Source: a virus | IMG/VR virus record: IMGVR_UViG_3300032285_004008 | Strand: one strand, 5' to 3' | DNA: 64,000 nt | Shown: positions 9,880 to 43,327 of the stretch, piece after piece | Layout of the letters: each line of letters starts with the position of its first letter | Position numbering within the stretch: position 1 is the first letter of the stretch | The notes under the pieces: model-generated | What the model saw: the letters and a program-made list of their open reading frames with translations, nothing else | Told to the model about the DNA's origin: nothing | Database searches by the model: none | Program-made: the position numbers and the translations under genes

Positions 9880-9880
9880 A

Positions 9881-22837: not shown

Positions 22838-23952
22838 TTAGCGACCTACCTTTCAGAAGTGAATACCTTAGTACTCGGTCGTTTATTGTCTTGGTGTTAG
22901 ACATTATCATTTTCAGTTGTATTGTCACAGTGCGCGAAAAGCACCTTTTGGCTTTTATTGCCTAAGGTGCTTGTCGTCTTAATAGTTTAGCACTAGTTTA
23001 CGGTGCGTTGTCAAATTTTTAAGAAAAAACTGTCTTTTTCAGTGATTATTTGGGGGTAGGGGCGTTTATTATTTTGGCTCGTATGGTAAGGTTCGGACGA
23101 ATTTTTTGAAAATTTGTGGAGCTGGATTTTATAAATGGGGGGTCTTCAGGATTGGCATATTTGTATTAAGGGGGGTATATGGTATACTAGGCACTAACTG
23201 CTTTTGGGGTGCGAGACGGCAGTCGTTGTTTGGGGAGGTGTCCAGATTTGTTTCCTAACGGCAAGGGGGTCTTGCTTTTTTGGGCTGACTTCAAACTTCA
23301 AACAAAGACTAAGGCTCTTGTCTAGTTTCAAAGCAGACTAGACAACCAAGCCCAGCAGCCTTGCTCAAAACTGAGTCTAAGAATAGACACTGAAACTGTC
23401 TCATTCTTGGGCAGTTGTCATCTCATCTATTTCTCTAGGCAGAGGGTTCGGGAACTGATTACCTGAGGGAACTGAAACTAATCAAGAAAACACTTAGATA
23501 CTCAGACAGCCTGCGGAGCACTCGGCAAGCAGTCAGGAGTTGTCTAATGTTGCTGGGTTGAATTGCCAGTTATCAACCTGCGGGCTAGTTGCCACATTCA
23601 ACCCAGTCAAAGAATCTCAGGGGATTTACCTAAGGTCAGTCCGCGCCAAAGGTGCGCATTTGAATCTGCCTGCGTCACTAGCACCGACAAAGTTGCTTGA
23701 TGTTATTCCATACATTGATGGGCGAGCAGTGAAGGTTGTGGTGACTTTTAGTGCACTCAACTTTCTATGAACCGAGTTATGTTGAATTGGATGTGCGGAG
23801 ATCCGCCGTGTCATTCGCCGTGTAGCTGGCAACTACCCAGCTCTCTATTTGTATTTATTTTTTCTAGGAATGTCCCTCGCCCACGCACCCACGCAGGCAA
23901 AAGAAAAACCCCCAGCCCGAAGGCTGGAGGTTTGCCGTGTAAGGCTTAGAGG

Positions 23953-24180
23953 CTACAAAGCGTAGCCGCTAAAGTCCCCACGCATGACGCGGTCAATCGC
24001 GTCTACGCAAGGCTGGCAGAAGTCCATGAAAAGGGCTTCCGCAGGGAACGAGCCGTCGCAACGCTCGCATAGGGTTTCGCCCTCTAGGGCAGGAGCGACA
24101 GGCACGCACTCGCGAGCGTGGTTGTCGCCTGAGATGTGCCACTGGTGGCACGCCTCGCAACGAAGGTGAGTTCTTGACAT
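23953..24180 (-). CDS. Small Zn-finger protein (cassette gene)
   Basis: Three CxxC motifs; AGGGG SD; own promoter and terminator. Confidence 0.65.
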   Translation of the reverse strand: MSRTHLRCEACHQWHISGDNHARECVPVAPALEGETLCERCDGSFPAEALFMDFCQPCVDAIDRVMRGDFSGYAL

Positions 24181-24223
24181 CTGAGTCCCCTAACTTCAAG
24201 CAACCTTTTTGCTTGATAGTTCA

Positions 24224-24251
24224 AGCATACCAACAAACTGAAAAAAGTCAA
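24224..24251 (-). promoter_or_regulatory. SigmaA-type early promoter
   Basis: TTGACT-N16-TATGCT. Confidence 0.75.
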
Positions 24252-24386
24252 GCGAACAAGATCGATCTTTCTTGTCGCACTGAAGTCCACAGAAAAAATA
24301 AATACACTCGCCACTACGCCAAACTTCCAACGAACAAAAAGAAAACCCCCGCCAGCGAACTGGCGAGGGCTTTCGTTTGAACTTTA

Positions 24387-24548
24387 CTAAATAGTGCGGA
24401 AGGTAAAGGTTCGACCATCAGTCATCAACTGCTTGGTTGCGTCAATGATTTCAATCGCACGCTTGACCGTGTGAGCCTCATACACAGGCTGACCAACAAT
24501 AGTGCCATCTGCCTCGTAGACAGTAATTTCAATTCCAGTAAAACGCAT
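24387..24548 (-). CDS. Small hypothetical protein (cassette gene)
   Basis: 53 aa MRFTGIEITVYEADG..., below the ORF cutoff; AAAGGG SD. Confidence 0.6.
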   Translation of the reverse strand: MRFTGIEITVYEADGTIVGQPVYEAHTVKRAIEIIDATKQLMTDGRTFTFRTI

Positions 24549-24602
24549 TTGGTTATTCCCTTTCGTAGCCCTCAGTCCCCTTGACTTCCTGACTACATAA
24601 GT

Positions 24603-24631
24603 AGTCTACCCCAGTCCTGCGACAAAAGCAA
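24603..24631 (-). promoter_or_regulatory. SigmaA-type early promoter
   Basis: TTGCTT-N17-TAGACT. Confidence 0.7.
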
Positions 24632-24765
24632 ATCGCCTCGCCACGCGAGGGGAACCCATAGAAAAAATAAATACAGCGAGGCAGCAAAAAAAAAAAAAAA
24701 ACGAACAACGAACCAGACAAAAGAAAGCCCCCTGCCTTTCGGCAGAGGGTCTTTGAACTTTTAGG

Positions 24766-24990
24766 CTACTCGCCAATAACCTTGTCTAGAAAGTTATTTA
24801 CCTGAGTTGCGAAAGTGAAAAAGACTGCGCCAACGCCAGCGATTAGCCAACCATTCGACCACGCCTCATTCACCGTGATACCTGCGCCAGCACCAAGTCC
24901 AACTAATACTGCGTAGCCAAGCACACAAGCACTAGCAACGAATGGCACAGCAACAACTGCGATTACTGCTCTACGAACTACAAACTTCAC
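24766..24990 (-). CDS. Small two-TM membrane protein (cassette gene)
   Basis: GTG start with AAGGGG SD; promoter TTGACT-N16-TATGCT. Confidence 0.6.
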   Translation of the reverse strand: MKFVVRRAVIAVVAVPFVASACVLGYAVLVGLGAGAGITVNEAWSNGWLIAGVGAVFFTFATQVNNFLDKVIGE

Positions 24991-25201
24991 TTTGAACCCC
25001 TTTTCTATCAAGCCCTTTGCTTGATACTTCAAGCATAGCAACCCTCAACCATAAGTCAAGACTTCAACACAAACTTTTTTCTGCGTCTCGAAAAACGGAG
25101 AAAAAATAAATACAACCAGGCGACGCACGCATCACCAAACTTTCAACGAAAAAACCCCCGCCGAAGCGGGGGCTAGTTCTGCCGTGTTATGAGTTATGGG
25201 C

Positions 25202-25378
25202 TTAGTAGTTCTCATTCACCCAATCGTAGAGTTCCTGAAAGTTATCTGCCTTAGAAACCTGCCACATAAAATCTTTATCTTCTAATAGCAAGTTGTATTC
25301 GACAGTTGTATTTGCCGAAACATCCCCAACGATAATGCGAATGTCTAGCGTTGAAAGCAATGAACCAATAGCAACCAT
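25202..25378 (-). CDS. Small acidic hypothetical protein (cassette gene)
   Basis: 58 aa MVAIGSLLSTLDIRII..., below the ORF cutoff; AAGGGGG SD. Confidence 0.6.
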   Translation of the reverse strand: MVAIGSLLSTLDIRIIVGDVSANTTVEYNLLLEDKDFMWQVSKADNFQELYDWVNENY

Positions 25379-25788
25379 TTTGGTTGCCCCCTTTCTTGTT
25401 GATAAAACAATGCTATCAACTACCTACGACATTCTTCGCACGAACCTTCCCGTGTTATGGCAGCCCAGAGAAAAAATAAATACAGACGCAGGGTCAAAAA
25501 AAATTAGCGTTCTAACTTCAAACCAACCCACAAACAAAAAACCGCGAGCGCGAAAGGAATGACTGGAACAAAAAGATTAGGGTAGCCAATGGCAAATCCC
25601 ATTAGCCAACCAAAACCAAAACCAACTGCCAAGCCATAGAAAATAATGGCGAACTCTTTAGGAACTCTCACGCTTTGAAGCCTCTCGTCTAGCCGTGTAA
25701 GACGCATAGTTTGAATGCTGAAAAACTTGAAACGCAACTCGGCTAATGCCAAGCCAAAACTTATGCTTGAGCAAATAAACCTCACGCA

Positions 25789-26037
25789 TTACGCACCTGC
25801 TCTGTCTAGGAATACTTCATACAACTTAGCACGCAGACGGCTTAGGTTGCGCTCTGCCCTCTCGCTTGAGCCAATGAGATACATACCAGCAAGGGTCTTT
25901 ATTTCCTCGTTGCGATAGCACTCTGCCCAAATCGCAGACTTAGTGTGAATTGAATACTGGTCCTCGCCACCAGCAAGGCGGAACACTTCCTCATAGGCGA
26001 ACTCTGCCCTTGTGTCCTTTTGAACTGTCTTTAGCAC
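25789..26037 (-). CDS. Hypothetical protein (cassette gene)
   Basis: GTG start with AAGGGG SD; promoter TTGCTT-N17-TAAACT. Confidence 0.55.
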   Translation of the reverse strand: MLKTVQKDTRAEFAYEEVFRLAGGEDQYSIHTKSAIWAECYRNEEIKTLAGMYLIGSSERAERNLSRLRAKLYEVFLDRAGA

Positions 26038-26222
26038 TTGATACCCCTTTCGAACTCCACTCTGGAACTCATACCTTGAGTTTACCCCTCGACACCAAAT
26101 AAAGCAAGCAAGCAAGTCGCCGTGTTTAGATGTGGCAAGAAAAAATAAATACACTCGGCTTTCAAAAAAAAAACGGCAAGACAAAACCCCCGAGCCGAAG
26201 CCCGAGGGTCTGCCTCTCCTGC

Positions 26223-26546
26223 CTAAAGGGTCTTTAGGTAGTCATACTCGGTTGAGCGTAGAGTTGCCTCAAACGCCTCTGGAAAGTTTGCCTTCATTAG
26301 TTCTCGGTCAAAGTGAGTATTTGAGCCGTGAACAACACGAACGGCAACTACGCCCTCAACGATACCAGCCTGAGCCTCGCCCAAAGCCTCACGCAAAACT
26401 GCCTCTGCCTTAGCCTTGAGAGCCTTAGCCTTTGCCTCTGCTGCCTTTGCCTTGTTGAATGCTGCTAGTGCCTTTACTGCCTTTGCTGAAAGTTCTACAC
26501 CCTCAACTGCCTTGTTGCTCTTTGCTACTACAACTGCGTTAGCCAT
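26223..26546 (-). CDS. Coiled-coil hypothetical protein, paralog of 32539..32910
   Basis: MANAVVVAK start with SD; FDRELMK..FPE motif. Confidence 0.65.
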   Translation of the reverse strand: MANAVVVAKSNKAVEGVELSAKAVKALAAFNKAKAAEAKAKALKAKAEAVLREALGEAQAGIVEGVVAVRVVHGSNTHFDRELMKANFPEAFEATLRSTEYDYLKTL

Positions 26547-26824
26547 TTGGCTACCCCTTATCTTTTCTACCAGCCTTGTTGCTGATGTATTCAGCATACA
26601 AGCAAGCCACGACATTTGTCAAATCATTTCACCAGCGAGTTGAAAATCGTAGAAAAAATAAATACAGCCGGAAAACCAACTTCCAACGAGCAAAAAATAA
26701 CCCCGCCGAAGCGGGGTCATTCTTTTTGAAACTTAGACGAGCCGTGTAATCATCGTTGTAATAATCGCAATCGCAAACCACACGAACGCAACCACACAGG
26801 CAATCCCATCTATCTTTTTGGTGC

Positions 26825-27028
26825 TCACTTGACAACCACCCACTCCATAGCAACTCGAAGCAAGTTGTTGTAGTCCCCCGCCATTGACTCGGCTAGGTAG
26901 TTTGAAATCTCGTCTTTGTCTACCCCAGCCTTTTTCAAAGCACTCTGGACAGCGCCCATAATTGCGAACGCATTGCCATCACGCCCAACCAGTTGAACCT
27001 TGACATTTGGATACTTCACATCTGCCAT
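26825..27028 (-). CDS. Conserved small phage protein
   Basis: VQLVGRDGNAF...AL..AG...GDY..LL motif common in phages. Confidence 0.7.
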   Translation of the reverse strand: MADVKYPNVKVQLVGRDGNAFAIMGAVQSALKKAGVDKDEISNYLAESMAGDYNNLLRVAMEWVVVK

Positions 27029-27208
27029 TTTGAACCCCTTTTCTATTGACACTCTGCCAATACCAAAAGACTACCCCAAACCAGGGACAACTTCAAACGA
27101 ATGTTGCCCGTGTTCCTGGTGTGCCAAGAAAAAATAAATACGCCTCGACGCAAAAAAAAACGACGCAAAAAAAGAGGCTAGGTTTCCCTAGCCTCTCCTC
27201 TTTTGTCT

Positions 27209-27559
27209 TTAGTCCTCTAGCGCCATCAAGGTTTCCATTGACTTAGCCAAGTTCTTGATAAGGCTAATCTCTTCTTCGCCTAGCCCTAGAGTGTCGCCAT
27301 TCTCGTCAGTTCCACCCGTGAAGACAACTGAACCATGAATGGCATACTGTCCACCAATAGTTCCAAAAAACGCACTGGCAATTGGGTTTGTGTCTGGCTC
27401 GCTGCGAAGTAGAAACTCCTCGTTCACCCACATGGTCATGTTCTCGGTTAGGTCAATCGCCTCAATCCAGCCATCAACTCCAGCCTGTAGTTCCTTTAGT
27501 GAGATACCAGTTTCAGTAATCTCTGAGTTTGAATTTACAATCAAACCAATCTTGCTCAT
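27209..27559 (-). CDS. DUF3846-like protein
   Basis: LKELQ..V.G.IE...MWVNEE...N..AS...I.G.VV..G..DENG. Confidence 0.7.
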   Translation of the reverse strand: MSKIGLIVNSNSEITETGISLKELQAGVDGWIEAIDLTENMTMWVNEEFLLRSEPDTNPIASAFFGTIGGQYAIHGSVVFTGGTDENGDTLGLGEEEISLIKNLAKSMETLMALED

Positions 27560-27743
27560 TTGTTCCCCTTCTAACCCAACCTTTGGGTTATGTAATAAGC
27601 CTACTACTACCCACCGACATTTCTAACCAAGTTTCGTTTGTTGTTTTGAAGACGCAAGAAAAAATAAATACACCTAGACGCACGCACATCTCACGAGCAA
27701 AAAAATTGCCCCGTGTTTCCACGAGGCAACTTCTTTTCGTTTG

Positions 27744-27947
27744 TTAGACGAGTTTAGACATCTGCTGAATGTTCTCGTTCGCCTTTGTAAGTAAAAGGTT
27801 TACTGACTCCATTACAGTTGCCGCTAGTGCTAGATTCCCCTGCGCTACTAGGTCGCTGACGACACCAGTAAGCAAGTTTGCTGACGCTACATAATCAGTA
27901 GCCGTGTAGAGTTTGTCCTCTACATTCTTCGTTAGGCTATCTGCCAT
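27744..27947 (-). CDS. Small helical hypothetical protein
   Basis: GGGAG SD; own promoter and terminator. Confidence 0.6.
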   Translation of the reverse strand: MADSLTKNVEDKLYTATDYVASANLLTGVVSDLVAQGNLALAATVMESVNLLLTKANENIQQMSKLV

Positions 27948-28198
27948 AACTCCCTCTCTGTTAGCGATTTGCTAACTACTAAAACTCTACTTCCACCCAC
28001 TGACATTTTTATCATTCAAGTTCGCCTATTTCCAAAAAGTGTAGAAAAAATAAATACACATAGCGCAGAAAAAACTTCAAACAAAAAACAAAAAACCCGA
28101 TAGCAACTTCGCTATCGGGTCTTTCGGAGAAAGAAATGAGGGGGCATTTCCTTTATCTCTGTCGCTTGCCAAAGGGGGATAAGGCAAGCGAGTTCTAT

Positions 28199-28444
28199 TT
28201 ACTTTTCTGGGTCGTAGTCTGCCCAATAATCCTCTGCCAGTTCCTCTCGGCTTGGCAGTTCTTTTTCTAGGCTTTTTCCGCAGTCTGGACATTCAGCATA
28301 GGCGTTGTAGCCATAGTCGTCTGTCTGACCATCAAGTTCAAACTCTTTGTCGCACACCGAGCAATAGAAATCACCCGTGTAATCCTCCGAGTAGATACCT
28401 GACCCCATCATTGAGCGACCATCACCATAAGCACCTAGCGACAT
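28199..28444 (-). CDS. Acidic Zn-ribbon protein
   Basis: CSVC...CPDC; D/E-rich. Confidence 0.6.
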   Translation of the reverse strand: MSLGAYGDGRSMMGSGIYSEDYTGDFYCSVCDKEFELDGQTDDYGYNAYAECPDCGKSLEKELPSREELAEDYWADYDPEK

Positions 28445-28620
28445 TAGTGGTTCATCTCAAATCCAGCAGAATACTCAACCCCAGTAGGAGTTGGGTCGTA
28501 GCACTCCTCACAACTGCCAAATTGTGCGTAGTGTTCGCTTACTAGCGGATTCTTGGTTGTAATTTCACTTTCGCAGTCTGGACAAACCCCTAGCCCAGTT
28601 GCGTTCTTTGTTCCTGACAT
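28444..28620 (-). CDS. Small Zn-ribbon protein
   Basis: CPDC...CEEC; GGAGG SD before the ATG at 28620. Confidence 0.6.
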   Translation of the reverse strand: MSGTKNATGLGVCPDCESEITTKNPLVSEHYAQFGSCEECYDPTPTGVEYSAGFEMNH

Positions 28621-28889
28621 TTCTGCCTCCCTTTGACAACCCCTTGTTGTCATACTTCAACCTTACACAACTCCCACGACATTCGCAACCCCCCGCGAGC
28701 GCGAGTCTAGAAAAAATAAATACACTTCCAACGAACCATCTGGGCAAAAGAAAAACCCGCCTTTCGGCGGGCTTCCTCGTTTCAGTTAGCGATTACGCAA
28801 GGGCTTCCGTGTTCTAAACTCTCGTATTGACCAAGCCAGTCCAGCCAAGCCAGCGATAATCAGAATCAAACCAACGATAAGTGCGAGCA

Positions 28890-29243
28890 TTAGTAGTCCT
28901 CGTCTTCCTCGTCATCTGAAGAAAACTCGTCTTCCCACTCGTCTTCCTCTTCATCACCCTCGCCTTGACCTATCAAGGTCTCGAACCCAGCATTCGGGTC
29001 TTCAAGATTAGTTTCGACTGCGTTCACAAAACGCAACCCACACGAATCCCCATACCATTGCTTTACAGTTTCCAGCATCTCGCTAGGCGACATTTCATCA
29101 GCCGTGATTAGCGGGTCGTAGTCAAGTTCACGCATTTCCTGAACCTGCGCCTCGTCCATCAGCAAGTAAATCTTGTGGCAAGTATCCCAAGCAATTGCCT
29201 TTGCCTCGTCAATACGAGCCTCCACCAAACTAAAATCAACCAC
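28890..29243 (-). CDS. Highly acidic hypothetical protein
   Basis: WDTCHKIY, SCGLRF; poly-D/E tail. Confidence 0.65.
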   Translation of the reverse strand: MVDFSLVEARIDEAKAIAWDTCHKIYLLMDEAQVQEMRELDYDPLITADEMSPSEMLETVKQWYGDSCGLRFVNAVETNLEDPNAGFETLIGQGEGDEEEDEWEDEFSSDDEEDEDY

Positions 29244-29443
29244 TTTACTACCCCTTTTCTGTAGCCAGCCTTTGACTACATCAGTAGTCTATGCCCAACC
29301 TCGGACATTTGTAAACATTTGCGTTTCTCTGCGTGGCGTCTGTAGAAAAAATAAATACACTCGCAACCGGCGGCGCAACTTCGCACGAAACAAAAAAAGT
29401 CTGCCAGTCTTTCGACCAACAGACTTTCTTCGAGCCGTGTTTA

Positions 29444-29842
29444 TTATTCTTCTTCTTGCGCCTTACTGAAAGTGAACAATGCGCCCAACTCGTCATGGCT
29501 TGAACGAACGCAAGTCAAGTCTTTGCCTTCAAGTTTGTAGCGTAGAGTAAAGTCGCCATTCAAGGTTAGGCAGTCAATAGCCTCGCTTGCTCGAATGTTT
29601 GTCCAGCCAGCAACCTTATTCCAATTCATGTTTCCACTGAACACATAGACAACCGTGTCCTCATCCCAACCATTAGCCTCAAGCCAAGGTTGAAGAATAG
29701 TGTATTTGAAGTTGTCCTTCTCATCTTCCCAGCAACCGAAACATTCGTTGCTAGGCGATGAAGTGTCGTCATCTTCGTTGTAGTCTTCGCAGATACAGTC
29801 TGAAGTAATCTCAAACTTTACTGCCTCAGTTGTTATAGTCAT
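29444..29842 (-). CDS. Acidic hypothetical protein
   Basis: CxC...CxxC, SHDE; AAGGGG SD. Confidence 0.65.
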   Translation of the reverse strand: MTITTEAVKFEITSDCICEDYNEDDDTSSPSNECFGCWEDEKDNFKYTILQPWLEANGWDEDTVVYVFSGNMNWNKVAGWTNIRASEAIDCLTLNGDFTLRYKLEGKDLTCVRSSHDELGALFTFSKAQEEE

Positions 29843-30047
29843 TTGTTTCCCCTTTTCAGTGGCTTGTCTTTTCCACTAACTAAAGTTTATCGGCAGCCTC
29901 CGACATTTTCAACTTCCAACGAACAAACTCATCAAAAGTGTCGCCAGCCGCGAGAAAAAATAAATACACGCTGCGACGCATGCTTCGAGTCAAAAAAGAA
30001 AAACCCCGCACAAGGCGGGGCTTCTTTTTATTTATGTTTAGCCGTGT

Positions 30048-30344
30048 TTACTCTTCGTCTGCCCAAAACTCTTCTTCGTCAATAATCCAAGACTCCAAGT
30101 GATGACCTTCGACGATAGCCCAAGCAGGCGCTGAACTCTCTCCACGCCAAGTCGAGTTGTCTGGAAGTTTGAAGTGAGCATTTATGTCTCCCCCTTCGTT
30201 GAGGTGGCTGATAACATCTCTACAAATTGGCACCATTGTCTTTGGCACTGGCGGGAAGTGATTTCCCCTTAGGTGCCATTCAAGTTGCTCCTCTAATGAA
30301 AGCCCAGCCGTGTTGGCCATCTCCACTGCCTGCATTCTTCCCAT
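30048..30344 (-). CDS. Hypothetical protein
   Basis: LEWHLRGNHFPPVP...HHLESW; AAAGGGA SD. Confidence 0.6.
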   Translation of the reverse strand: MGRMQAVEMANTAGLSLEEQLEWHLRGNHFPPVPKTMVPICRDVISHLNEGGDINAHFKLPDNSTWRGESSAPAWAIVEGHHLESWIIDEEEFWADEE

Positions 30345-30512
30345 TCTGTCCCTTTCGTCTTTTGTAGTTAGTTCAACTACTAAGTTCACGATACCAGGTG
30401 CTTGCAAGTATTTTATTCCGCGAGCGCGAAGAGTCGTCAAACCCAGAGAAAAAATAAATACACTTGACGCTAAAAGAAAAACCCCGCGAGCGCGGGGCTA
30501 ATCTTTGTGTCT

Positions 30513-30794
30513 TTATGCGTGGCAGTCGCAGGTGCAGTCCTCCAACACCAACGCACGCTTACGCTCTTTGAGGTTAGTGCGCTCTACTATGAGGGCTAAC
30601 CACTCCGTGTTTAGTTCACGCATCTTGCGTGCCCAGTCTGTTAGGGGGTCTACTGAAATACCTAGCACAACGCTAGTCCCTTGCGCCTTAGCAAGTTCCA
30701 ACCCAGACTGCGACTGCTCTTGTCTAATCTCTGCTAGACGCTCGCCAATCTCTGCTAGACGCTCTTTGATTTCCTTGATTTGAGTAATGTCCAT
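30513..30794 (-). CDS. Coiled-coil protein with C-terminal CTCDCH
   Basis: Promoter TTGACT-N17-TAGACT at 30861-30833. Confidence 0.6.
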   Translation of the reverse strand: MDITQIKEIKERLAEIGERLAEIRQEQSQSGLELAKAQGTSVVLGISVDPLTDWARKMRELNTEWLALIVERTNLKERKRALVLEDCTCDCHA

Positions 30795-31034
30795 TACTGC
30801 CTTTCCGAGCCAAACCTTTTGACTACATTTGTAGTCTACCATACTCCACCTACAAAGTCAAATCTAAAAACCTACGCCGTGTTAGTTTGTAGAAAAAATA
30901 AATACACTTTGCGAGAAAAAAATAAAATCCAGATAAAACGAAACGACAGTCATTGGGGGAATGACTGTCGTTCGTTTGAGATAAGGGTTAGGGGGTAATC
31001 CTTATCTCTTTTAGTTAGGAGTAATCTCGACTAA

Positions 31035-31370
31035 CTAAACCTTTACTTTACAAAAATCTCGACATTCTACGCCTTGATAAGTGTAAGAGCCCGTGTCTGC
31101 GTTTACAACCACAGTTGGATTATCCATCCAAATTTCATCCTGCGCCCCAAAAGTGTCAATGCCGAAACTTAGTTCGCCATCATAGTTTCCAAGTTTCGCA
31201 AACTCGTAAAAAATCTGCGCAGTTAGATAACTTGAATCACCAATGCGACCAGTTCGAGCCAGCACATTACGCACAGCCTCTAAGTTCTGCTCGCCTGACC
31301 AATGTCCATAAAAAGCAATTGGACTTGTAAAAGCCTTAGCCTCTACAACAATCAAACTTCTGTCTCCCAA
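31035..31370 (-). CDS. Hypothetical protein
   Basis: TTG start with AAGGGG SD; GDRS...YGHWSG motif. Confidence 0.6.
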   Translation of the reverse strand: MGDRSLIVVEAKAFTSPIAFYGHWSGEQNLEAVRNVLARTGRIGDSSYLTAQIFYEFAKLGNYDGELSFGIDTFGAQDEIWMDNPTVVVNADTGSYTYQGVECRDFCKVKV

Positions 31371-31565
31371 TTTTGTTGCCCCTTTTCTGTAAGCCACTTG
31401 CCTACATAAATAATTTACTACATACCCGCGACAAATACAAATCAAAACCCCGTGTTCGTTTGAAGTGTCTCTACACTGCGAGAAAAAATAAATACACATA
31501 CACACAAAAAAATGGCAAAAGAAAACGGGCTACCATTTCGATAGCCCGTGCTCTTTCGTTTGAAG

Positions 31566-31700
31566 TTAGCCACCACGCAACGCAGTCGCAAACCAGTCGT
31601 AAAACTCATTCTCACATTTCTCACAAATAGGGTGAACCTGCGTAATGTCCTCGACTTCAATCTCTGCGTCGCACTGATAGCATTCGGTCTTTACAGCCAT
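31566..31700 (-). CDS. Small Zn-finger protein
   Basis: 44 aa MAVKTECYQC...HPICEKC, below the ORF cutoff. Confidence 0.5.
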   Translation of the reverse strand: MAVKTECYQCDAEIEVEDITQVHPICEKCENEFYDWFATALRGG

Positions 31701-31703
31701 TTC

Positions 31704-31910
31704 CTATTCCTTTGACAGAGGGACATTGTTTAGAATCTCTAAGGCTTGGTAATACAAATCCATTTCCTCATCAAACTCTTCCCATTCGGAAGTTTCCGTG
31801 TTCCACACTTGTTCTTCCTTGCCGAACCTTGCCGAGTAAGTGTCGTCATCTATGAACGGCACGCCCTCCTCTAAATCAACTGTCACTACAAAGTGAACTT
31901 GCTTTGCCAT
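31704..31910 (-). CDS. Small acidic protein
   Basis: MAKQVHFVV... with AAAGGA SD. Confidence 0.6.
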   Translation of the reverse strand: MAKQVHFVVTVDLEEGVPFIDDDTYSARFGKEEQVWNTETSEWEEFDEEMDLYYQALEILNNVPLSKE

Positions 31911-32066
31911 TGCGTTAGTCCTTTCCTTGACTATCTCCATCTTATTCCGCGAGCGCGACATTACGCCAACCATTTCTATTCGAGTTGAAGTTGATAGAAA
32001 AAATAAATACATCTGCGAGTCAAAAAAAAACGCTGACGATTTCTCGCCAGCGTTCGTTTGAAGTTC

Positions 32067-32375
32067 TTACAAAACTGATTCAGAATAATTTTCGATTCGA
32101 TTCAGCAAATCGTGTGCCGTGTCTGGAATCTGTATGCCACCCATAATGAGAGACGCACAATAAATAATCTCGGAGGGTTCTACTCCCATTCCCTCATAAG
32201 CAACTTTGTCTAAAAGTTCCGAACTAAGTTCCTTTGACCCTCGCTCAACTTCGGACAAATACCCAAGTGCGACAGACGCTTGCCCTGAAACCTGTCTTAG
32301 CGTTAGCCCCTGAGCCTGACGCTCATCACGAAGGGCTTGCCCCAACGCCACTCTAAACAAAACTCGTTTACTCAT
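32067..32375 (-). CDS. ClgR-like XRE/HTH transcriptional regulator
   Basis: [37 protein letters not shown] matches the actinobacterial ClgR HTH. Probably leaderless (TATCAT 6 nt upstream of the ATG). Confidence 0.8.
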
Positions 32376-32538
32376 ACTCAAATGATAGTTGCCGTGTTCA
32401 ACTTTGTAAACAACATTCGTTTGAAGTTTGTTCTTCGCTAGAAAAAATAAATACAAACCCCGTGCGAAAAACCCCGTGCGAAAAAAAAACCGCCAGCGAG
32501 AGGGGGGTCTCGCTGACGGCTTTTCTGGACTTATCTGT

Positions 32539-32910
32539 TTAGATTATGTCCACCCTTAGGGTTGCTTTACCAGCACCCTTTGGAATCGTGTATTCCTGTT
32601 TGAGCAAGACATACAACTCTGGCTGGGTCTTTTCAAGGCGTTCCCAGTCAAACGATTCGCTTGACGGAATAACCTTGACGCTAATCAAACGCTTTCCCTT
32701 AGCGTCCGTGCCAACTAGGTCGGTGAGAGTTTCCCCAACGAAGTCAAGAATCTCGGTGCGTGCCGAATCCCCTAGTGCCTTTGCCTGCTTGGCAAGGTTG
32801 CGTGATTCACGCAAGGCTTTCACCTTTGCCTGAACCTTTGGTGGCAAGACAACAATGTTGTCCTGTGTGGTGCTGGTGATAGTTGCTTTCGCAACCTTTG
32901 TGTTCGCCAT
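32539..32910 (-). CDS. Hypothetical protein, paralog of 26223..26546
   Basis: MANTKVAK...FDWERL...PELY. Confidence 0.65.
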
Positions 32911-33078
32911 TTGATTTCCTTTCGTAGAGTATCACTGGGCTTACAAGTTCCACATTACCTTAGTCTGCCGACATTACGCAAATCCTATCGTGGTCGTGTC
33001 GCCGTGTTCGTAGAAAAAATAAATACAACCCGCCCTGAAAAAAAGACTGGGCTTTCGCCCAGCCTTTCGTTTGAAGTT

Positions 33079-33939
33079 CTACTCCTCCGTGTTGTCCTCA
33101 TACTTCGGGAAAAGGTGTTCCCCTGTGTTCTCGTCTACAACTCGGAAACTATCTGCGTCCTCTGGTTCGAGGTTGTCTAGTCCGTCTTGGGCAAGTTCCC
33201 ACGCTTGCTCTGCGTTCTGGGCTTTGACCACATAACGGCGTTCGACTACAACTACGAAGTCCCTGTCCTCACGAGGGCAGTCCTCATAGAGGTCGTCTTC
33301 ATCACCGCTTTCGCACGCCCAGCAATCACGCCCTAGTTCCACATAGTCTGCGTGGCTATCGGGTATGTCCCACTCTTTCGTCATAATCAGCGACTTAGTT
33401 GGCTTGCCGTCTTCATCTACATCATCTGCGTCTGACGAAGTAAACTCCGCGCCCCAGCCCTGCTCTTCCTCCGAATAGAAGTCGAATGAAAGTTCTGGGT
33501 GCTGTCTGACTATTGCGTGGAATACTGGCTCTGGTATTGACCAAGCCGTTTGGAATGCGTAGTTCAGAAAAGGTGCTTTGTCGTCCGTGTTGTCCGTGAA
33601 GTCCACATCACTTGCGTCCCACTTAGTTCCCCACTCACGAACATTCCAGTCATACCAGCCGTTAGAAGAAAACTTCATTGAGTAAGCCATCTTATCTTCG
33701 ACAGACCAGTCGTTGTATCCGTCTGGCTTGTAGTCGCTTGCCCCGAAGTAGAGAGCCTTGTCCTCTGGCTCAATGAAGTTCCAAAATGAGAGTTCGCTCT
33801 TGTCGCCCTCCGTGTAAGTGAGCGAGCCGTCCTCCGTGTTCAGTCCGTCTGGTCGAGTTTTGCTCGCCTTATCACGGAACGCAATCAAGTCCTCTTTCGA
33901 GCCATTGACATTCATTGTGTTGTAGACCCAGTTTGGCAT
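33079..33939 (-). CDS. DUF1281/YubB (Api92)-like ferredoxin-fold protein
   Basis: MPNW..N, WYDWN...WGTKWD, F.TAW motifs. Confidence 0.75.
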   Translation of the reverse strand: MPNWVYNTMNVNGSKEDLIAFRDKASKTRPDGLNTEDGSLTYTEGDKSELSFWNFIEPEDKALYFGASDYKPDGYNDWSVEDKMAYSMKFSSNGWYDWNVREWGTKWDASDVDFTDNTDDKAPFLNYAFQTAWSIPEPVFHAIVRQHPELSFDFYSEEEQGWGAEFTSSDADDVDEDGKPTKSLIMTKEWDIPDSHADYVELGRDCWACESGDEDDLYEDCPREDRDFVVVVERRYVVKAQNAEQAWELAQDGLDNLEPEDADSFRVVDENTGEHLFPKYEDNTEE

Positions 33940-33941
33940 TT

Positions 33942-34238
33942 CTACCACTCCCCTTTCTTGATGTCCATTTTGTGCTTTTCAATCATCTCGTTCACAGTTT
34001 CACCTGCGAACAACTTGACTACGCCGAGCCGTGTTTCCAACTCCTCTATGCCCAACTTGCGAGCAAGGATTTCCGCTAGTGCCACAGCACGATACATAGT
34101 TGGGTCGCAGTATCCCTCTTGGCAATACTCCTCGACCATTACACCCAAAGTTGCTAGTGCGATACCAGCAATGTCCTCTGGCTCTAGGTCAGCGTGGTTC
34201 AACTCGTCCATTCGCTCACCTGAACACTTTACGCACAT
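33942..34238 (-). CDS. Hypothetical protein
   Basis: AAGGGG SD; promoter TTGTAT-N17-TAAAGT. Confidence 0.6.
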   Translation of the reverse strand: MCVKCSGERMDELNHADLEPEDIAGIALATLGVMVEEYCQEGYCDPTMYRAVALAEILARKLGIEELETRLGVVKLFAGETVNEMIEKHKMDIKKGEW

Positions 34239-34542
34239 CTCAATCCCCTTTCATTTGGATTAGTTCCACTTTACCCTAGTCCTACGACAAATACAAATAC
34301 CTCGTTGGAAGTGTCGTGGCGTTTCGTAGAAAAAATAAATACACACACTCGAAAAAAAAAACGCAACGCAACTTTTCATGAGTTCGTTTGAAGTTCACCA
34401 GACTCGGCAACAACTGGTGCGCACTTACACATGGCAAAGAAAACCCCCGACAATCCGTTAGGACTATCGGGGGTTCTCTGTTATCACTAACGGAGTGATG
34501 AAAGGACGAACAAACGCACTCCGTTAGCAAACTTGCTGGCGA

Positions 34543-36303
34543 CTAAACGCTTGCTTTCAAAAGTGCGTCCGTTGCGCTCTTACCAATCGCAGACGCAATC
34601 TCGCTGGTCGCTAGATTTCCTAGCACCACGCCGTTTCCCTTGACCAGTCTCTCGCCCATTCCTTGACCGCACTCTTTCGGTGTAATCCAAAGCAGAGCCA
34701 CGCCGTTCTCTTTACAGAGGCGAGCCGTCTCAATCGCACGCTCGGTCTCTGTGCCTGTGTAATGTCCGTCCGATACAACAACCAACATACGCACGCCAGT
34801 TCCAGTTAGCAGACCAAGTGCGCCGTCCAATGCTCGGAACGCCTTGCCAAAAACTTCCGTTCCGTCTGGTGCGGAGTAGACCGAAACCTTATCCAACTTC
34901 TGACCAACCTTGAGAGTTGGGAACACATCTTGTCCGTAGTAGACCATAGCGGTCTTGGCTTGAATACGGCGACCTGCCTCTGACAAAACCCAAGCCGTAG
35001 TCGCCATGCTTTTCATGGCAGACGACATAGAACCGCTAATGTCCACCATTACGCCAATGGTCAAAGTCGGGTCGTCTGTGTGCTTGCGTGTCTTGTGTCG
35101 CCACGCAGGGTTCAAGTCTCGCACGCCCTTTGCCTCTAGTGCCTTGTTCTGAACAAGCACTCGTGATTTCAGTCTGCCCTTTGGTTCGACAGACTTCACG
35201 ATAGTTTCCGAACGCTCACGATACTTTGCCTTTTCCAACATCTGCGCAAGTTTGACTGCGCTGGCTCGTTCGTGTCCAGTTGGGTCTCGTTGCTCTTGAA
35301 GTCGTGAGTGAGACGAAGTTCCCTCGCTACCACTTGACTTGCTAAAGACTTCCTGTGCGTCTCGCTTGCTCTCGCTTTGTCGCTTGCTCTCGCTCTGACG
35401 CTTTGAGACTTCCTCTTTCCATTCCTCTTGGGTCTGCTGGTCGCCCAAGTCTTTCGCAACGGAAGTTCCAGTCTCACCTGCGTCCTCGCTCAAAGCGTCA
35501 AGCAAGTCCTGAATGATTTGAGGAACGCCAGAACCACCCTCACCCTGTTCGCCCTCTGGGTCTGCCTCTTTCAAAAGGTCATTCCACTTTTGAGCAAGTT
35601 CGATACCACGAGCAACTTGGCTCGTGTGAAGTTGCTGAAACTCCACCCAAACTTTGCGAAGTTCATTGAACAAGTCTAACCCAATGACCTCAAGAACTTT
35701 GTCGAAAGTTGCTTGAACATCTGCCAACTTCAAAACACCTGCGTCCACTCGTGCGAGTGCCAACGCTGATACATGAGCGCACGCACGAACCTCTGTCAAG
35801 TTGTCAAGTGCCTCGTCTGTCAAGTCCTCTAGTGCCAAGTTCAAAGCAGACGCACGCAAGAACAACTGGTTCTCTGGCATTAGAACAACGCCCTTGCGTT
35901 CGATACGACTTTCGTCTAGCAACTGAAAAGTCCTGAAAGTTTTTTCGTCCATGCTTTCAAGCGCAGACATTTCCCAAACTGAAAAACGAGCGTGAAGTGC
36001 CTCGTGATAAATAACCCCTGTTGCCTCTGCGAAGTCATACTGGACTTCTCGCTCTGAAAAGTCGCCAACCATTTCTGGAGTGGTCGCAAGACCAAACGCC
36101 CCACCAATGTTGATTTCGATTTCAGCAGTCGTGTTGATAAAGCAAGCAATAGCCATGCCCATACCTGCGTCCTCGCCTGCGTAAACTGCCAAGTCATTTC
36201 GACCTGACCAAGTGTTTACAACCTGCCCAATCTGTGCGCAAGTTTTCAGCCACTCGTTAGGCGTGGTGCTGGTGCGTGTTGCTACTCGTGATAAGTGAGA
36301 CAT
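34543..36303 (-). CDS. VWA-domain protein with HExxH (MoxR partner)
   Basis: HEALH; MIDAS DISGSM, GT, VSDG. ATG at 36303 with SD. Confidence 0.85.
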   Translation of the reverse strand: MSHLSRVATRTSTTPNEWLKTCAQIGQVVNTWSGRNDLAVYAGEDAGMGMAIACFINTTAEIEINIGGAFGLATTPEMVGDFSEREVQYDFAEATGVIYHEALHARFSVWEMSALESMDEKTFRTFQLLDESRIERKGVVLMPENQLFLRASALNLALEDLTDEALDNLTEVRACAHVSALALARVDAGVLKLADVQATFDKVLEVIGLDLFNELRKVWVEFQQLHTSQVARGIELAQKWNDLLKEADPEGEQGEGGSGVPQIIQDLLDALSEDAGETGTSVAKDLGDQQTQEEWKEEVSKRQSESKRQSESKRDAQEVFSKSSGSEGTSSHSRLQEQRDPTGHERASAVKLAQMLEKAKYRERSETIVKSVEPKGRLKSRVLVQNKALEAKGVRDLNPAWRHKTRKHTDDPTLTIGVMVDISGSMSSAMKSMATTAWVLSEAGRRIQAKTAMVYYGQDVFPTLKVGQKLDKVSVYSAPDGTEVFGKAFRALDGALGLLTGTGVRMLVVVSDGHYTGTETERAIETARLCKENGVALLWITPKECGQGMGERLVKGNGVVLGNLATSEIASAIGKSATDALLKASV

Positions 36304-36424
36304 TTGATTTCGTCCTTTCGTTGTCTCTTGATTTGTTGCTAGTTCCAACCTTACCAGATTTGGCAGGGAACGCAAGTTCATTTACAAACTGCGTTCCCCA
36401 CCTTTTCTAGTAGGAACGGAACTA

Positions 36425-37453
36425 CTAGATTTTGGCTGGCAGAACTGCCTCGCCAAAAACTCGTGTGAACACATCTGCGACAACAGACCTGTCAATCTCT
36501 GGTGCGCTGGCAAGCAAGTTGGCAACTGCCCACTTAGAACCAAACAACTCGCTTAGGTCTCGGAACGCAAGCAACTCTCGCATTTGAGGCGACCATGAAG
36601 TTTCGCCATTCGCCTGTTTCTTTGCCAAGTTCTGTGAGGCTGAAACTGCTGTCGCAGGAACGCCCAACTTCTTTGCCAATGCCCAGTCAGTAGTCATTTC
36701 GACCTGAACGCTGAAACGAGAGAGCAACGCCTCTGAAAGTCGAACTCCGGGTGCGTTAGGGTTGGTCGCACCAATCACGAAAAATCCCTCTTGAGCCTTG
36801 ATAGTTCCTCGCTCTGGGTTCTGGGTAATCGTGATTTCCTTGCGTCCGTCCATAAGACCATAGACCGCAGACAAGACCTTTGGGTCAATCAGACCAATCT
36901 CGTCAATGAGCAAAACTTTTCCTTGCTCGGCAGACTTGACCAATGCGCCGTCCACCCATTCAAAACCGCCACTTGGAGTTTGAACATAGCCACCAATGAA
37001 GTCAGCAAGTTCGGTGTCGCCAGAACCAAGAATGGTGTAAAGTTCGTCAGGGAACGCACCCTCAACGAGTGCTGTCTTTCCAGTTCCAGGTGCGCCATAG
37101 AGCAAGACATACTGACCTGCGCCTCGTGCTTTGCGCAAGACTTCAATGTCTGTGTGTTCTCCCCATGAGCGAGAGTAGTAATCCTGACCATTAGGTCGTG
37201 CGTATTTCTCAACGCCCTCTAATGCCTCAACATTTACCACTTTGTTCGCCTTTACTTTTGGAGTGCCAGTTCCAACTTTAGCACGCACATTCGCACGAGC
37301 AGTCGTTGGCATTAGCGCACTTAGTTCTGCTGGAACTTTGGTTGCGTCCATGTCTTGAATGGCAACACCATAGACAAGTTTCGATAGGTCTTGGTAAAGG
37401 TCGTCCACATTTAGTTCGACCTCTGGAACTGCTGGAGTAATGAGAGTAGTCAT
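36425..37453 (-). CDS. MoxR/CbbQ/CobS-like AAA+ ATPase
   Basis: GAPGTGKT, LLIDE, ATNP, LSEALLSRF. Confidence 0.9.
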   Translation of the reverse strand: MTTLITPAVPEVELNVDDLYQDLSKLVYGVAIQDMDATKVPAELSALMPTTARANVRAKVGTGTPKVKANKVVNVEALEGVEKYARPNGQDYYSRSWGEHTDIEVLRKARGAGQYVLLYGAPGTGKTALVEGAFPDELYTILGSGDTELADFIGGYVQTPSGGFEWVDGALVKSAEQGKVLLIDEIGLIDPKVLSAVYGLMDGRKEITITQNPERGTIKAQEGFFVIGATNPNAPGVRLSEALLSRFSVQVEMTTDWALAKKLGVPATAVSASQNLAKKQANGETSWSPQMRELLAFRDLSELFGSKWAVANLLASAPEIDRSVVADVFTRVFGEAVLPAKI

Positions 37454-37477
37454 TTTATTTTCCGTCCTTTTCTATGA

Positions 37478-37996
37478 CTATGCTTTTGAGTTGTATGGCT
37501 TTTCAGGAAAGCCAAGTGCTAGGCGAGTTTTCTGAATACGGCGAAGTGCTGACGCTGGTGCTTTCCAATCGCCGATTTCGGTGAAGTCCATGTCTGTAAG
37601 TTCAAACACGATAGGCTTTGCGCCACGCAAGTTAGTCAGACCATACTTCATCTGACGCTTGAGAACACGCTCTACCTGCTCTGACATAGCAGACGCTTTT
37701 GCCTCTGCTGTGGTCAGTTCCTTATCAGGTCGAATGAAACTGATACGCCATTGCTTGCGTGGAGACCAATCGCTAATAGTGCGAGTGCTAATAGCCATTG
37801 CGACATCTTGACCCTTTTCGTTCTTTCCCTCTGGGGTAATCAAGATTTGAGTTGCTTGGTCGCCATTGGCATTTGGGAGTTCAAGGTAGATACCCATTCC
37901 CATTACCTTTGGCTTGTTGCTAACTTCACCAAGCGCAACTGCGCTGGCTAGTTCTGGGGTTAGTTCCCCGAATGTTCCCATTAGGTCTGGGTTCAT
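37478..37996 (-). CDS. Hypothetical protein
   Basis: AAAGGA SD; first gene of the AAA/VWA operon. Confidence 0.6.
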   Translation of the reverse strand: MNPDLMGTFGELTPELASAVALGEVSNKPKVMGMGIYLELPNANGDQATQILITPEGKNEKGQDVAMAISTRTISDWSPRKQWRISFIRPDKELTTAEAKASAMSEQVERVLKRQMKYGLTNLRGAKPIVFELTDMDFTEIGDWKAPASALRRIQKTRLALGFPEKPYNSKA

Positions 37997-38103
37997 TTTT
38001 TTCCGTCCTTTACTTTAGGTTTGTTGGATTTTTCCAACAAGTCAAACTTAGCAGGGTTCGTTGGAAGTTGTCAAGTTCTGCTGTATTTATTTTTCTGGCG
38101 TGT

Positions 38104-38640
38104 CTAGAAGTGAAAATCAACTGGGATTAGGAACTGCTTTTCAGGACTAGAGGCAACTCGCTTTGTGAAGTTGTCTAGTGAACCTGTCCAATAGTCCAAG
38201 TCGTAGATACCACTATCAGGTGTCCAGTCGTCATTCAGAAGTTGTGCCAACTTCTTAGTTCCCCACAACTCCATGTCTAGTTTGTTGTTGTATGGGTCGT
38301 AAGAATAACTAGATAGGTCTAGTGCCTGTGGCTGGAGAAGTCTGATTTCCTCGTAGCGATACTCCAGAAAACGAGTAATCACTTGTTCCGCGAGCGCGGG
38401 GTCGTCTGAATAGCGCAGATAGTTTGGGTTGGTATCTGTGTTGGTCATTACACCCTCCTCGTTGTATGACCCAAAGACTTCACCAGACCAGCGACCAGCA
38501 AAGTTCAAAGTGATAGCCCCTGACTGGTCTGCGTTGTGCCAGTCAGACCATTTTGGCTCGCCCTCTAGTTTGCGTGCTACTTCATCAAAAGCCTGTTCTG
38601 GTGTCTCTGCCTCTACTAGCAGGATTTGGCAAGTGTGCAT
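38104..38640 (-). CDS. Hypothetical protein
   Basis: WSDW...GRWSG...VDFH phage-type motif. Confidence 0.65.
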   Translation of the reverse strand: MHTCQILLVEAETPEQAFDEVARKLEGEPKWSDWHNADQSGAITLNFAGRWSGEVFGSYNEEGVMTNTDTNPNYLRYSDDPALAEQVITRFLEYRYEEIRLLQPQALDLSSYSYDPYNNKLDMELWGTKKLAQLLNDDWTPDSGIYDLDYWTGSLDNFTKRVASSPEKQFLIPVDFHF

Positions 38641-38790
38641 TTTCGTCCTTTCGATTTGCCTAGTTCCAAACTTACAACGAACCTATGACAAAATACAAGT
38701 TGTCAAACGAGCGTGTTTCGTAGAAAAAATAAATACAACTAGGGCAAAGAAAAAAGCCCCTCGTGTTTGAGAGGCTTTCGTTCTTTGTTG

Positions 38791-39303
38791 TTATGCGTAG
38801 AGTTCCTCACGCAAGAGGTAGCAGGTTTTACAGATTGGGAGGCTTAGGCTCTTACTTCCTCGCCAAGTCTTTCTTTCCTCGAACTCGTGGACGCCCTCTG
38901 CGAAGTGTTTCGCTAGTTCAATCGTGTTTGCGTTGTAGCGAAGTTTGTTCCACATTTCCATACTCCATTCAGAAGTATCAAGAACCAGCATTTCCTCTGC
39001 GTTTCCGAAACTAGACCCAGAGAAGTAAGTCTTATTTCTTGGTTGGAGGTTTAGTGGAACTGCGATAAAAGCCCTGCCAGCAATCGTGTTCTCTTTGGCA
39101 TACTTCTTTGCTCGTGCCTCTGCTAGAGGTAGTCGTGAGTGGACACTCCAAATGCTCTCGAACACCCCATCTTTGAGCATTACAACTCCAGCAGTAATGT
39201 CTGACCTATCTGACCATGTGTAGAGCATTGTTCCAGCCCAGTCGGAGACAGGCATACCTACTGGTAGTTCAGGTATGTATTTGAAAGTGTTGTATTCAGC
39301 CAT
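38791..39303 (-). CDS. Hypothetical protein
   Basis: AGGAG SD; TTGACA-type promoter. Confidence 0.6.
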   Translation of the reverse strand: MAEYNTFKYIPELPVGMPVSDWAGTMLYTWSDRSDITAGVVMLKDGVFESIWSVHSRLPLAEARAKKYAKENTIAGRAFIAVPLNLQPRNKTYFSGSSFGNAEEMLVLDTSEWSMEMWNKLRYNANTIELAKHFAEGVHEFEERKTWRGSKSLSLPICKTCYLLREELYA

Positions 39304-39405
39304 AAATAACTCCTGTTTGTTCGTTTGGAGTCAACTTTACCAGAGTAGATAAGTAGTGTCAAATCTTTTTGGCTTGGTGTGTTGCGCTAGAAAAAATAAA
39401 TACAA

Positions 39406-39984
39406 CTAGAGATTTAGTCGATGTTTATTTGCCAGCGCTTCGTAATTCTTTTCTGCCTGCTCGAAATCAAATCTAGTCAAGTATTGAACGAATTCGTCAT
39501 AGTCAGGGAGTTCCCTAGAACTAGATACATGAGGAACACTGGAGTATGGCCCTCCATTGAAAATCTTTGTGGATACTGCCTCAGGGTGGAGTATCTCGTC
39601 ACCCAAAGCGTCAGCAACCTTTTTTACAACTGCGCTTGGATCTTTACAGAAGTCTTCATAAAGAACGACAATTTCTGCATTTGAATCTATGAACCTCATC
39701 TTGTCCGAGAACTCGCGAATGTAGAGGTCTACCATGGCATGGTATCCCTCGTCTCCAATTTGACTGTGTCCCTTTTTGGCATTCATTGCAATCAGTGACG
39801 CCACTGAACTTTTAGGGTCGCGAATGATTGAAACGATTTGCATACCATCAGCATCATCATCAAAGTGTGTCCCACGTAGGTGGACTTCGGTCTGCAGTTC
39901 ATAAGTGTGGGTGAATGCATTGAGCCCAGAGCGTGGGTAGGTGTAAACGACGTATCCGTTCTTACGGGTTGAGTCTAATCCCAT
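39406..39984 (-). CDS. Sulfotransferase-like protein
   Basis: YPRSG (5'-PSB), IIRDP...AS (3'-PB), YEDF. Confidence 0.7.
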   Translation of the reverse strand: MGLDSTRKNGYVVYTYPRSGLNAFTHTYELQTEVHLRGTHFDDDADGMQIVSIIRDPKSSVASLIAMNAKKGHSQIGDEGYHAMVDLYIREFSDKMRFIDSNAEIVVLYEDFCKDPSAVVKKVADALGDEILHPEAVSTKIFNGGPYSSVPHVSSSRELPDYDEFVQYLTRFDFEQAEKNYEALANKHRLNL

Positions 39985-39988
39985 GGTG

Positions 39989-40225
39989 CTAAAAATCTTC
40001 CTCCGTTGCTACAACAGCTTCTGCGCACTGCAAGCAAACCGTCCATTGGTCTATGTCATCTAAAACTATAGCGTATGAGTAGAACCCACCGTTGATGTAC
40101 CCGACCTCTTCGTAGCATGCCGAGCATGCCGCGCCGTCAATGTCGTCGATGTCTAGCAAGCCAGCCATCATTGCTGCGTCGATGTCCGCTGCGGACTCTA
40201 TCGTGTGGAGTTCTATATTTCTCAT
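39989..40225 (-). CDS. Small acidic Zn-finger protein
   Basis: CSAC...CLQC. Confidence 0.55.
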   Translation of the reverse strand: MRNIELHTIESAADIDAAMMAGLLDIDDIDGAACSACYEEVGYINGGFYSYAIVLDDIDQWTVCLQCAEAVVATEEDF

Positions 40226-40502
40226 ACGGCTAGAATACCCCGTTGTTCAAATAGTGATTTGAACGCGCTCGCGGTATCCCTAGAAGACCGTTACTCCAAG
40301 CGGTGTTGTCTTCACGAGCAGCCATTCGACATGCCGTGATTCGTTAGAAGTTGCGGATCGCAGCTGAGCTTCAGCTTCCCGTTCGGTTTCAGCAAATGCT
40401 AGAACTCGCCCGTTTAGTGCTGGGTCATCGGCTTTTGTGATGAGATACTCGTATGCGTTCATGAGTCCAGGTTAGCATGCCCGTGCCGTTATTGCAAATT
40501 GA

Positions 40503-41597: not shown

Positions 41598-41600
41598 CCG

Positions 41601-43101: not shown

Positions 43102-43146
43102 TATGTTCCTTCGTTAAAAGTTAAGGATCTGAGCTAGCTGCAGTTA

Positions 43147-43323: not shown

Positions 43324-43327
43324 TTCT

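Follow-up and report, generated by a model that had tools for sequence, protein, structure and literature searches.

Why should about 16 kb of a phage genome be nearly devoid of short palindromic words, when the DNA on both sides carries them untouched? The question arises from the IMG/VR virus record IMGVR_UViG_3300032285_004008, of which a stretch of 64,000 nucleotides (hereafter, the window) was analyzed; the window is part of a roughly 130-kb actinophage-like genome, and the purged block of about 16 kb corresponds to 12% of that genome. The block has the extent of an array of small-gene cassettes (23,866-39,403, minus strand) marked by 21 co-oriented exact copies of a 15-mer box, GTATTTATTTTTTCT. 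A first-pass annotation, made by eye from the sequence, had described a loss of 4-bp palindromes at this place and had proposed that the segment enters the host cell first. Counting against expectation showed that the depletion is real and stronger than was first described.

Depletion of symmetric sites in the cassette array

All 16 four-base palindromes of the window were counted in bins and listed by position. Ten of them (ACGT, AGCT, ATAT, CCGG, GATC, GGCC, GTAC, TATA, TGCA, and TTAA) occur 11 times in total between 23,851 and 39,403, where about 595 sites are predicted from the flank rate. Per palindrome, 10-73 sites are expected from a second-order Markov model of the region, and a synonymous-codon shuffle of the 28 genes of the region, in which the proteins and the region's own codon usage were preserved, expects 14-53 per palindrome versus 0-4 observed. 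AATT (14 versus 54 in coding DNA) and CGCG (12 versus 38) are likewise depleted; CTAG, GCGC, and TCGA show no depletion in the array. The loss extends to six-base palindromes (19 versus about 220 at the flank rate, with 53 of the 64 types absent) and to interrupted palindromes, with strong depletion of GTNAC (1 versus 25), GGNCC, CCNGG, GCNGC, ACNGT, CCNNGG, and GGNNCC; symmetry also characterizes the 5-mers with the greatest depletion. When all 4-mers of the region were compared with the Markov model, no non-palindromic 4-mer was comparably depleted. The structural and terminase genes of the window contain 572 sites versus 600 expected, i.e., no avoidance. The depletion targets symmetric words of the restriction type and does not stem from composition, as neither the Markov model nor the codon shuffle accounts for it; the earlier statement that the purge is positional was borne out.

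The listing by position gave the limits for each word. GATC is absent between 24,264 and 39,639 and AGCT between 23,839 and 40,016, in agreement with the gaps in the first-pass annotation. GTAC is absent between 22,871 and 40,097; the absence claimed for this word thus held, but not its lower limit of about 22,540, since GTAC occurs also at 22,807 and 22,871. The corresponding gaps are 22,524-39,874 for ACGT, 23,166-40,586 for TTAA, and 23,177-40,215 for ATAT. The surviving sites are CCGG at 26,668, 29,367, and 36,747, GGCC at 30,315, TGCA at 30,331, 30,403, 30,533, and 38,636, and TATA at 29,834; the exceptions previously listed for the nearly absent palindromes were correct except for one CCGG, which is located at 36,747, not 36,727. 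Two of the four TGCA survivors encode Met-His and Met-Gln, codon pairs for which TGCA is unavoidable; Trp-Pro pairs, which would force GGCC, are not found in the array. GATC occurs in the array only as GATCGATC at 24,260-24,267, between the last box and its -35 element, and is operator-like in placement.

The window contains 22 exact copies of the 15-mer: the 21 boxes of the array on the minus strand (the first at 39,389-39,403 and the last at 24,291-24,305) and a single inverted box on the plus strand (23,851-23,865), which caps the distal array end; no copy occurs elsewhere in the window. Each unit consists, in order, of a terminator hairpin with a T-run, the box, a spacer of 15-30 nucleotides, a TTGACA-like -35 element, a TAnnnT -10 element, and one or a few small genes. 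The boxes are spaced at 0.35-0.7 kb in the small-gene part, and the AAA-VWA operon (see below) makes a 4.4-kb gap. Terminator-like hairpins are 2.5-fold enriched (49 versus 19.6 expected). The -10 elements of the array avoid TATA and ATAT, and a generic sigma-70 scan found no promoter excess in the array, as expected from -10 boxes that avoid TATAAT. At the same place, relatives have their own arrays of conserved promoter motifs, commonly of the TGnTATAAT type; the promoters of the window therefore seem to have been rewritten so as to lose TATA and ATAT. The sequence features of these units support the view that the segment is an early-type gene block with its own promoters and terminators.

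The upstream edge of the purge is the first cassette box, at 39,403, where the site density drops abruptly; the purge does not include the gene at 39,406-39,984. On the distal side, the purge runs on through a non-coding tail (23,184-23,850) to approximately 23,184, apart from a four-site island at 23,752-23,839; none of the ten palindromes occurs in 23,184-23,751. The tail shows weak repeats only and no similarity to G001, a complete related genome (135,069 bp), and an Rfam search over 22-41 kb, tail included, gave no match. The tail carries 6 CTAG. The distal array end of relatives consists of non-coding short degenerate repeats (L111:6,000-7,200, L102:6,550-6,810, L101:4,000-5,000, and L098:500-800; L numbers denote related loci), which are dense in one retained palindrome (18-27 CTAG per kb) or, in L098/L099, contain iterons with AGATCT. 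This repeat stretch may be a cis-acting site for packaging, injection stop, or replication origin.

Maintenance of the purge among related phages

Related loci, mostly from uncultured phages, were fetched via the VWA and NlpC/P60 proteins (see below); a megablast search of the region against the phage collection gave no match. The large terminase of the window is 81-83% identical to that of G001 (loci L025-L031), 73% to that of the metagenome-assembled Actinomycetia phage DSL-LC01, 62% to those of Microbacterium phages such as Zooman, and 48% to those of Gordonia phages; because of this resemblance to actinophage terminases, the host is probably an actinobacterium. The same sharply bounded purge is found at the syntenic place in at least seven related uncultured lineages (G001/L015-17/L078, L048-51, L066, L096/97, L101/102, L104-106, and L111), each with a different retained set. 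L096 and L097 (84% nucleotide identity, with the same 15-mer box) share the pattern of the window; L048-L051 and L111 keep almost CTAG alone; L066 keeps CGCG, GCGC, TCGA, and CCGG; and L104-L106 have purged seven palindromes. Some other relatives purge TTAA alone, or nothing. The upstream edge adjoins the homolog of a 78-amino-acid gene (39,989-40,225, minus strand, in the window) in all of the heavily purged lineages examined there (G001, L048, L049, L066, and L096), and the distal edge lies 0.3-1.3 kb before the NlpC/P60 gene in the lineages whose distal edge was fetched. L102 has one inverted box at the distal array end, as in the window.

G001 combines two kinds of avoidance. ACGT, AGCT, GATC, and GCGC are absent from its whole genome; in its array only, ATAT (72,907-85,706), GTAC (72,920-90,095), AATT, and GGCC are missing as well. 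Outside its array, G001 has very few CCGG, CGCG, CATG, and TCGA sites; inside it, CATG and TCGA occur at normal levels. Similar absences were noted in other relatives, namely ATAT and TTAA throughout the 41 kb of DSL-LC01 (L001) and, essentially, TTAA in the 63 kb of Zooman (L046/L047). Since we know of no characterized restriction enzyme for bare ATAT or TATA, these absences may point to unknown host specificities.

The comparison of diverged arrays bears on whether the purge is still maintained. Across 10 kb of alignable array, 1,501 substitutions separate the window from L096 (15% divergence). Substitutions placed at random in equal number, as under neutrality, gave rise to about 199 sites of the ten words, and never to fewer than 163 in 300 simulations, whereas the window carries 8 and L096 carries 16. 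Between L015 and L016 there are 766 substitutions, for which about 70 sites are expected for ACGT, AGCT, GATC, GCGC, ATAT, and GTAC; both sequences have none of these six palindromes in that stretch, and ATAT and GTAC are common just outside it. Note that, when only the substitutions between L015 and L016 were placed on the L016 backbone, a few apparent sites arose beside gaps; the real sequences have none. Divergence without new sites means that the purge is maintained in place, in several lineages, by ongoing selection acting on the array only. A few sites of the purged set (ACGT, AGCT, and TGCA) are seen in L096:13,000-16,000 near cassettes that are absent from the window (an SSB gene and a reverse-strand gene); these look like newly gained cassettes that have not yet been cleaned.

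The block differs from its flanks in GC skew and oligomer usage, and this difference is the starting point of two other explanations. One is that the depletion is an artefact of composition or codon usage, for which the different base skew of the block, and nothing more, can be cited; considering the result of the codon shuffle, the restriction of the effect to symmetric words, and the substitution test with L096, we give it virtually no credit, and ongoing regional selection excludes codon bias as the cause. The other is mosaic ancestry, namely, that the array is a recent import from a phage that avoids these sites genome-wide and that its signature is left over from that source. Mosaicism is general among early modules, and the VWA protein of the window is nearer to those of L002-L007 (49%) than to that of G001 (39%), though the large terminase is nearest to that of G001. 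However, almost none of the sites expected from the divergence between the window and L096 arose in either lineage, the G001 clade is likewise site-free even for ATAT and GTAC, of which its flanks have many, the purged lineages share syntenic boundaries despite the different site sets, and no donor with such a genome-wide pattern was seen among the relatives. A recent import no longer under selection is thus very unlikely.

Genes of the array and its surroundings

Every gene between 1 and 46.7 kb is on the minus strand and is read with the standard genetic code; alternative codes (TAG or TGA as sense), which were checked since CTAG is frequent, were rejected because the standard code fits the long genes. 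The purged AAA-VWA operon encodes an AAA_5 (MoxR-like) ATPase (36,425-37,453; PF07728, E = 9e-20; 59-73% identical in relatives) and a VWA-domain protein (CoxE/CobT-like, 34,543-36,381; weak match to PF05762), the latter of which was the anchor for fetching relatives. Further array genes encode an acidic protein of 289 amino acids (33,079-33,948; isoelectric point (pI), 4.1) with a DUF1281_C ferredoxin-like domain, a helix-turn-helix protein found by domain search (32,067-32,456), a protein with a domain match to DUF3846 (27,209-27,559; pI, 4.1), for which a search of the literature found nothing relevant, and a very acidic protein of 117 amino acids (28,890-29,243; 32% Asp plus Glu, with a poly-Asp/Glu tail). 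The 117-residue protein is the best conserved of the small early proteins (538 relatives with 56-85% identity; Cys22, His23, and Cys68 are invariant); a Foldseek search of its AlphaFold model (predicted local distance difference test score, 77) against the PDB gave no fold match. Several small array proteins are very acidic and are without an informative family or fold match.

Directly upstream of the first box lies the unpurged sulfotransferase-like gene (39,406-39,984), which looks like an insertion because it is missing from the close relatives L096/L097. It is followed by the conserved 78-amino-acid gene at the upstream purge boundary, a homolog of Zooman gene 5, and by two conserved genes (42,253-44,236) that are homologs of the Zooman terminal-repeat genes 4 and 1 and have palindromes at the codon-shuffle expectation. 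At least five 2OG-Fe(II) oxygenase genes are present in the window (40,902-42,242, 54,918-55,487, and 58,998-60,853); the pair at 40.9-42.2 kb is unmatched in G001-G003, except for one weak match in G003, and this stretch cannot be aligned with L096. A serine recombinase gene (56,958-57,674, minus strand) is 64-71% identical in G001-G003; the phage otherwise looks lytic.

On the distal side, the array is followed by 0.9 kb of non-coding DNA and then by genes for an NlpC/P60 peptidase (22,202-22,837), which is the first gene past the distal boundary here and in related phages, a Sigma70_r4-like helix-turn-helix protein (20,659-21,219), the large terminase (18,820-20,220), and, downstream in the same orientation, the portal and major head proteins. 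The Sigma70_r4-like protein is homologous to that of Zooman gene 40, with which the gene series of the Zooman repeat ends; that it is the small terminase is our guess. The terminase of Zooman (L046, 22,688-27,528) is annotated in several pieces, and its tblastn match is split in two, suggesting that the gene is interrupted by an intervening element. Between the portal and the protease/head genes, the stretch at 6,010-15,849 (minus strand) encodes three proteins of about 1000 amino acids, one of which (9,881-12,865) has a weak PARP-like match; DSL-LC01 has a single gene of 3,289 amino acids at this place. These three may be ejected head proteins.

Proposed order of exposure and comparison with known systems

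Removal of sites from 12% of a genome is useful only if sites there matter more than elsewhere. On balance, we lean towards the view that the early module has been purged through time-ordered exposure to host restriction, before counter-measures exist. According to this view, the 21 cassettes, each complete with promoter, gene or genes, and terminator and situated upstream of the genes for packaging, would form an early module that the host polymerase transcribes while the phage has no counter-measure yet. At that time, the remaining DNA would either still be outside the cell, owing to stepwise or slow entry as in the first-step transfer of T5 or the leading region of T7, or become shielded by the products of the array once these are made; in either case, sites would cost fitness only inside the array. 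Strong continuing selection would then act on the module against almost every short symmetric (Type II-like) site, with the rest of the genome exempt. The order of entry, the link with a terminal repeat, and an anti-restriction product are what we infer. There is precedent for the importance of position: T5-like phages resist restriction-modification systems only when the sites are outside the terminal repeats (PMC10644984; 10.1101/866236), and in Autographiviridae motifs in the first-injected region decide the sensitivity (PMC12455610).

The genome ends were considered through relatives. Contig ends of several IMG/VR relatives, which clustered about 2 kb upstream of the VWA gene, were rejected as genome ends and judged to be assembly breaks because they coincide with repeated promoter motifs. 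The record of Zooman, the nearest phage with known ends, has an exact direct terminal repeat of 17,079 bp. Zooman genes 1, 4, 5, and 40 are homologs of the window genes at 43,328, 42,253, 39,989, and 20,659, and flank the array in the same order; the repeated promoter motifs of Zooman, at 2.95-15.8 kb, are all within the repeat. The homologous early array is thus terminal and duplicated in Zooman, which supports the idea of first entry. By this synteny, the terminal repeat of the window would span from approximately 44.3 kb to approximately 20.6 kb.

Several observations weigh against time-ordered exposure in its simple form. The Zooman array begins about 2.9 kb from the physical end, and the syntenic leader in the window (40-44.3 kb) has a normal site density, so that the array would be preceded by about 4.8 kb of unpurged leader or, with entry from the other end, by about 3.2 kb of unpurged trailer; the purge tracks the transcription units and not the inferred physical end. 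Zooman's own repeat shows no regional palindrome avoidance, and Phendrix, a more distant relative (large terminase, 48%), is annotated as circularly permuted. No DnaA-box cluster like that of the injection-stop region of T5 was found at 22.9-23.85 kb, and no anti-restriction family was recognizable in the 20 array proteins by Pfam and PHROGs. In addition, TCGA (in G001 and G002) and CATG (in G001) are less frequent outside the array than within it, a pattern that is not predicted by a pure model of the most exposed segment and is accounted for by none of the explanations considered here.

If the whole genome enters at once and the array is simply an expression platform, only the early cassettes would be unprotected and hence site-free, and the remainder would be shielded by co-injected head proteins, by a modification that the early block, for want of tolerance or of a way to receive it, must do without (the alternative offered in the first-pass annotation), or by host nucleoid proteins that have to be kept off the block while it is transcribed. 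The exact match of the purge to the cassette array, and not to the terminal repeat deduced from synteny, speaks for such a platform, as does the lack of any avoidance in the flanks, which must be protected somehow; the three large head-module proteins could be ejected. Nevertheless, we hold it to be doubtful, since the window yielded no gene for modification or shielding, no known mechanism keeps modification out of a 16-kb block, and the genome-wide avoidance of four palindromes in G001 would be pointless if the bulk DNA were modified or shielded. There is little chance, in our opinion, that the array avoids the phage's own enzymes, i.e., that early nucleases destroying the host DNA cut short palindromes and the early block lacks their sites. 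This has been published by Davison as a hypothesis for T5 A1 (10.1101/866236), and a regional pattern would suit any nuclease active while only array DNA is exposed; however, the avoided symmetric specificities number at least 12 and are not the same in close relatives, which suits varied host restriction-modification repertoires better. Moreover, no nuclease domain was found in the array proteins with Pfam and PHROGs, and ordered entry would be required here as well.

Time-ordered exposure can be carried one step further. We tentatively suggest, as something we would sooner doubt than assert, that widespread uncultured phages of about 130 kb, probably infecting freshwater actinobacteria, deliver their genomes in programmed steps, with a 'stealth' array disarming restriction before the site-rich remainder is exposed; the 21 co-oriented promoters would perhaps ratchet the array into the cell. 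If this is true, the choice of palindromes that each lineage has retained or purged is a record of the restriction-modification specificities of uncultured hosts, including those for bare ATAT and TATA, and the different sets purged in sister lineages would offer a way to infer the specificities of hosts that have never been grown. The purge would be a mark, readable from sequence and usable on uncultured phages, of phage DNA that faces host defences unprotected. For predicting escape from restriction, the position of sites counts besides their number, as the T5-like and T7-like experiments showed. The array is also a natural collection of early proteins without assigned function, among which the acidic family (more than 500 members) is a reasonable place to look for new anti-defence functions.

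Among known systems, the array resembles the first-step-transfer DNA of T5 and BF23 (Tequintavirus), which comprises approximately 10-17 kb of small pre-early genes and ends in a non-coding region. Restriction sites matter in T5 only inside that block, and here they are avoided inside the array and tolerated outside; the 17-kb terminal repeat with the homologous array in Zooman, a cultured relative, recalls the long terminal repeat of T5. Unlike in T5, the array is without a DnaA-box stop signal and is offset from the end by synteny, no homology to T5 genes was detected, and the avoidance spans nearly all short palindromes and not those of a few host enzymes. The leading region of T7-like Autographiviridae similarly has co-oriented early genes, and the position of motifs in the early-entering region transcribed by the host RNA polymerase is decisive there (PMC12455610). 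The motif in that case is of Type I and the leading region is short, in contrast to the 16 kb, 21 terminated cassettes, and Type II-like palindromes found here; transcription-driven entry is only a conjecture for this phage. The host-takeover module of SPO1 and the terminal-repeat genes of Twort-like phages also consist of many small early genes, each with its own strong promoter and terminator, as in the window, and are associated with long terminal redundancy; SPO1 relies on hydroxymethyluracil, and we know of no regional palindrome purge in the SPO1 or Twort-like phages. Genome-wide avoidance of restriction sites occurs in phages and broad-host-range plasmids, and G001 shows this type for its short palindromes, whereas the avoidance in the window is limited to 12% of the genome and affects a far wider range of sites. 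The principle is thus already known from T5 and T7-like phages; what is new is the breadth of the avoidance, its contrast with the untouched flanks, its exact match to the cassette array, and its recurrence across a family of uncultured phages with shifting sets of sites.

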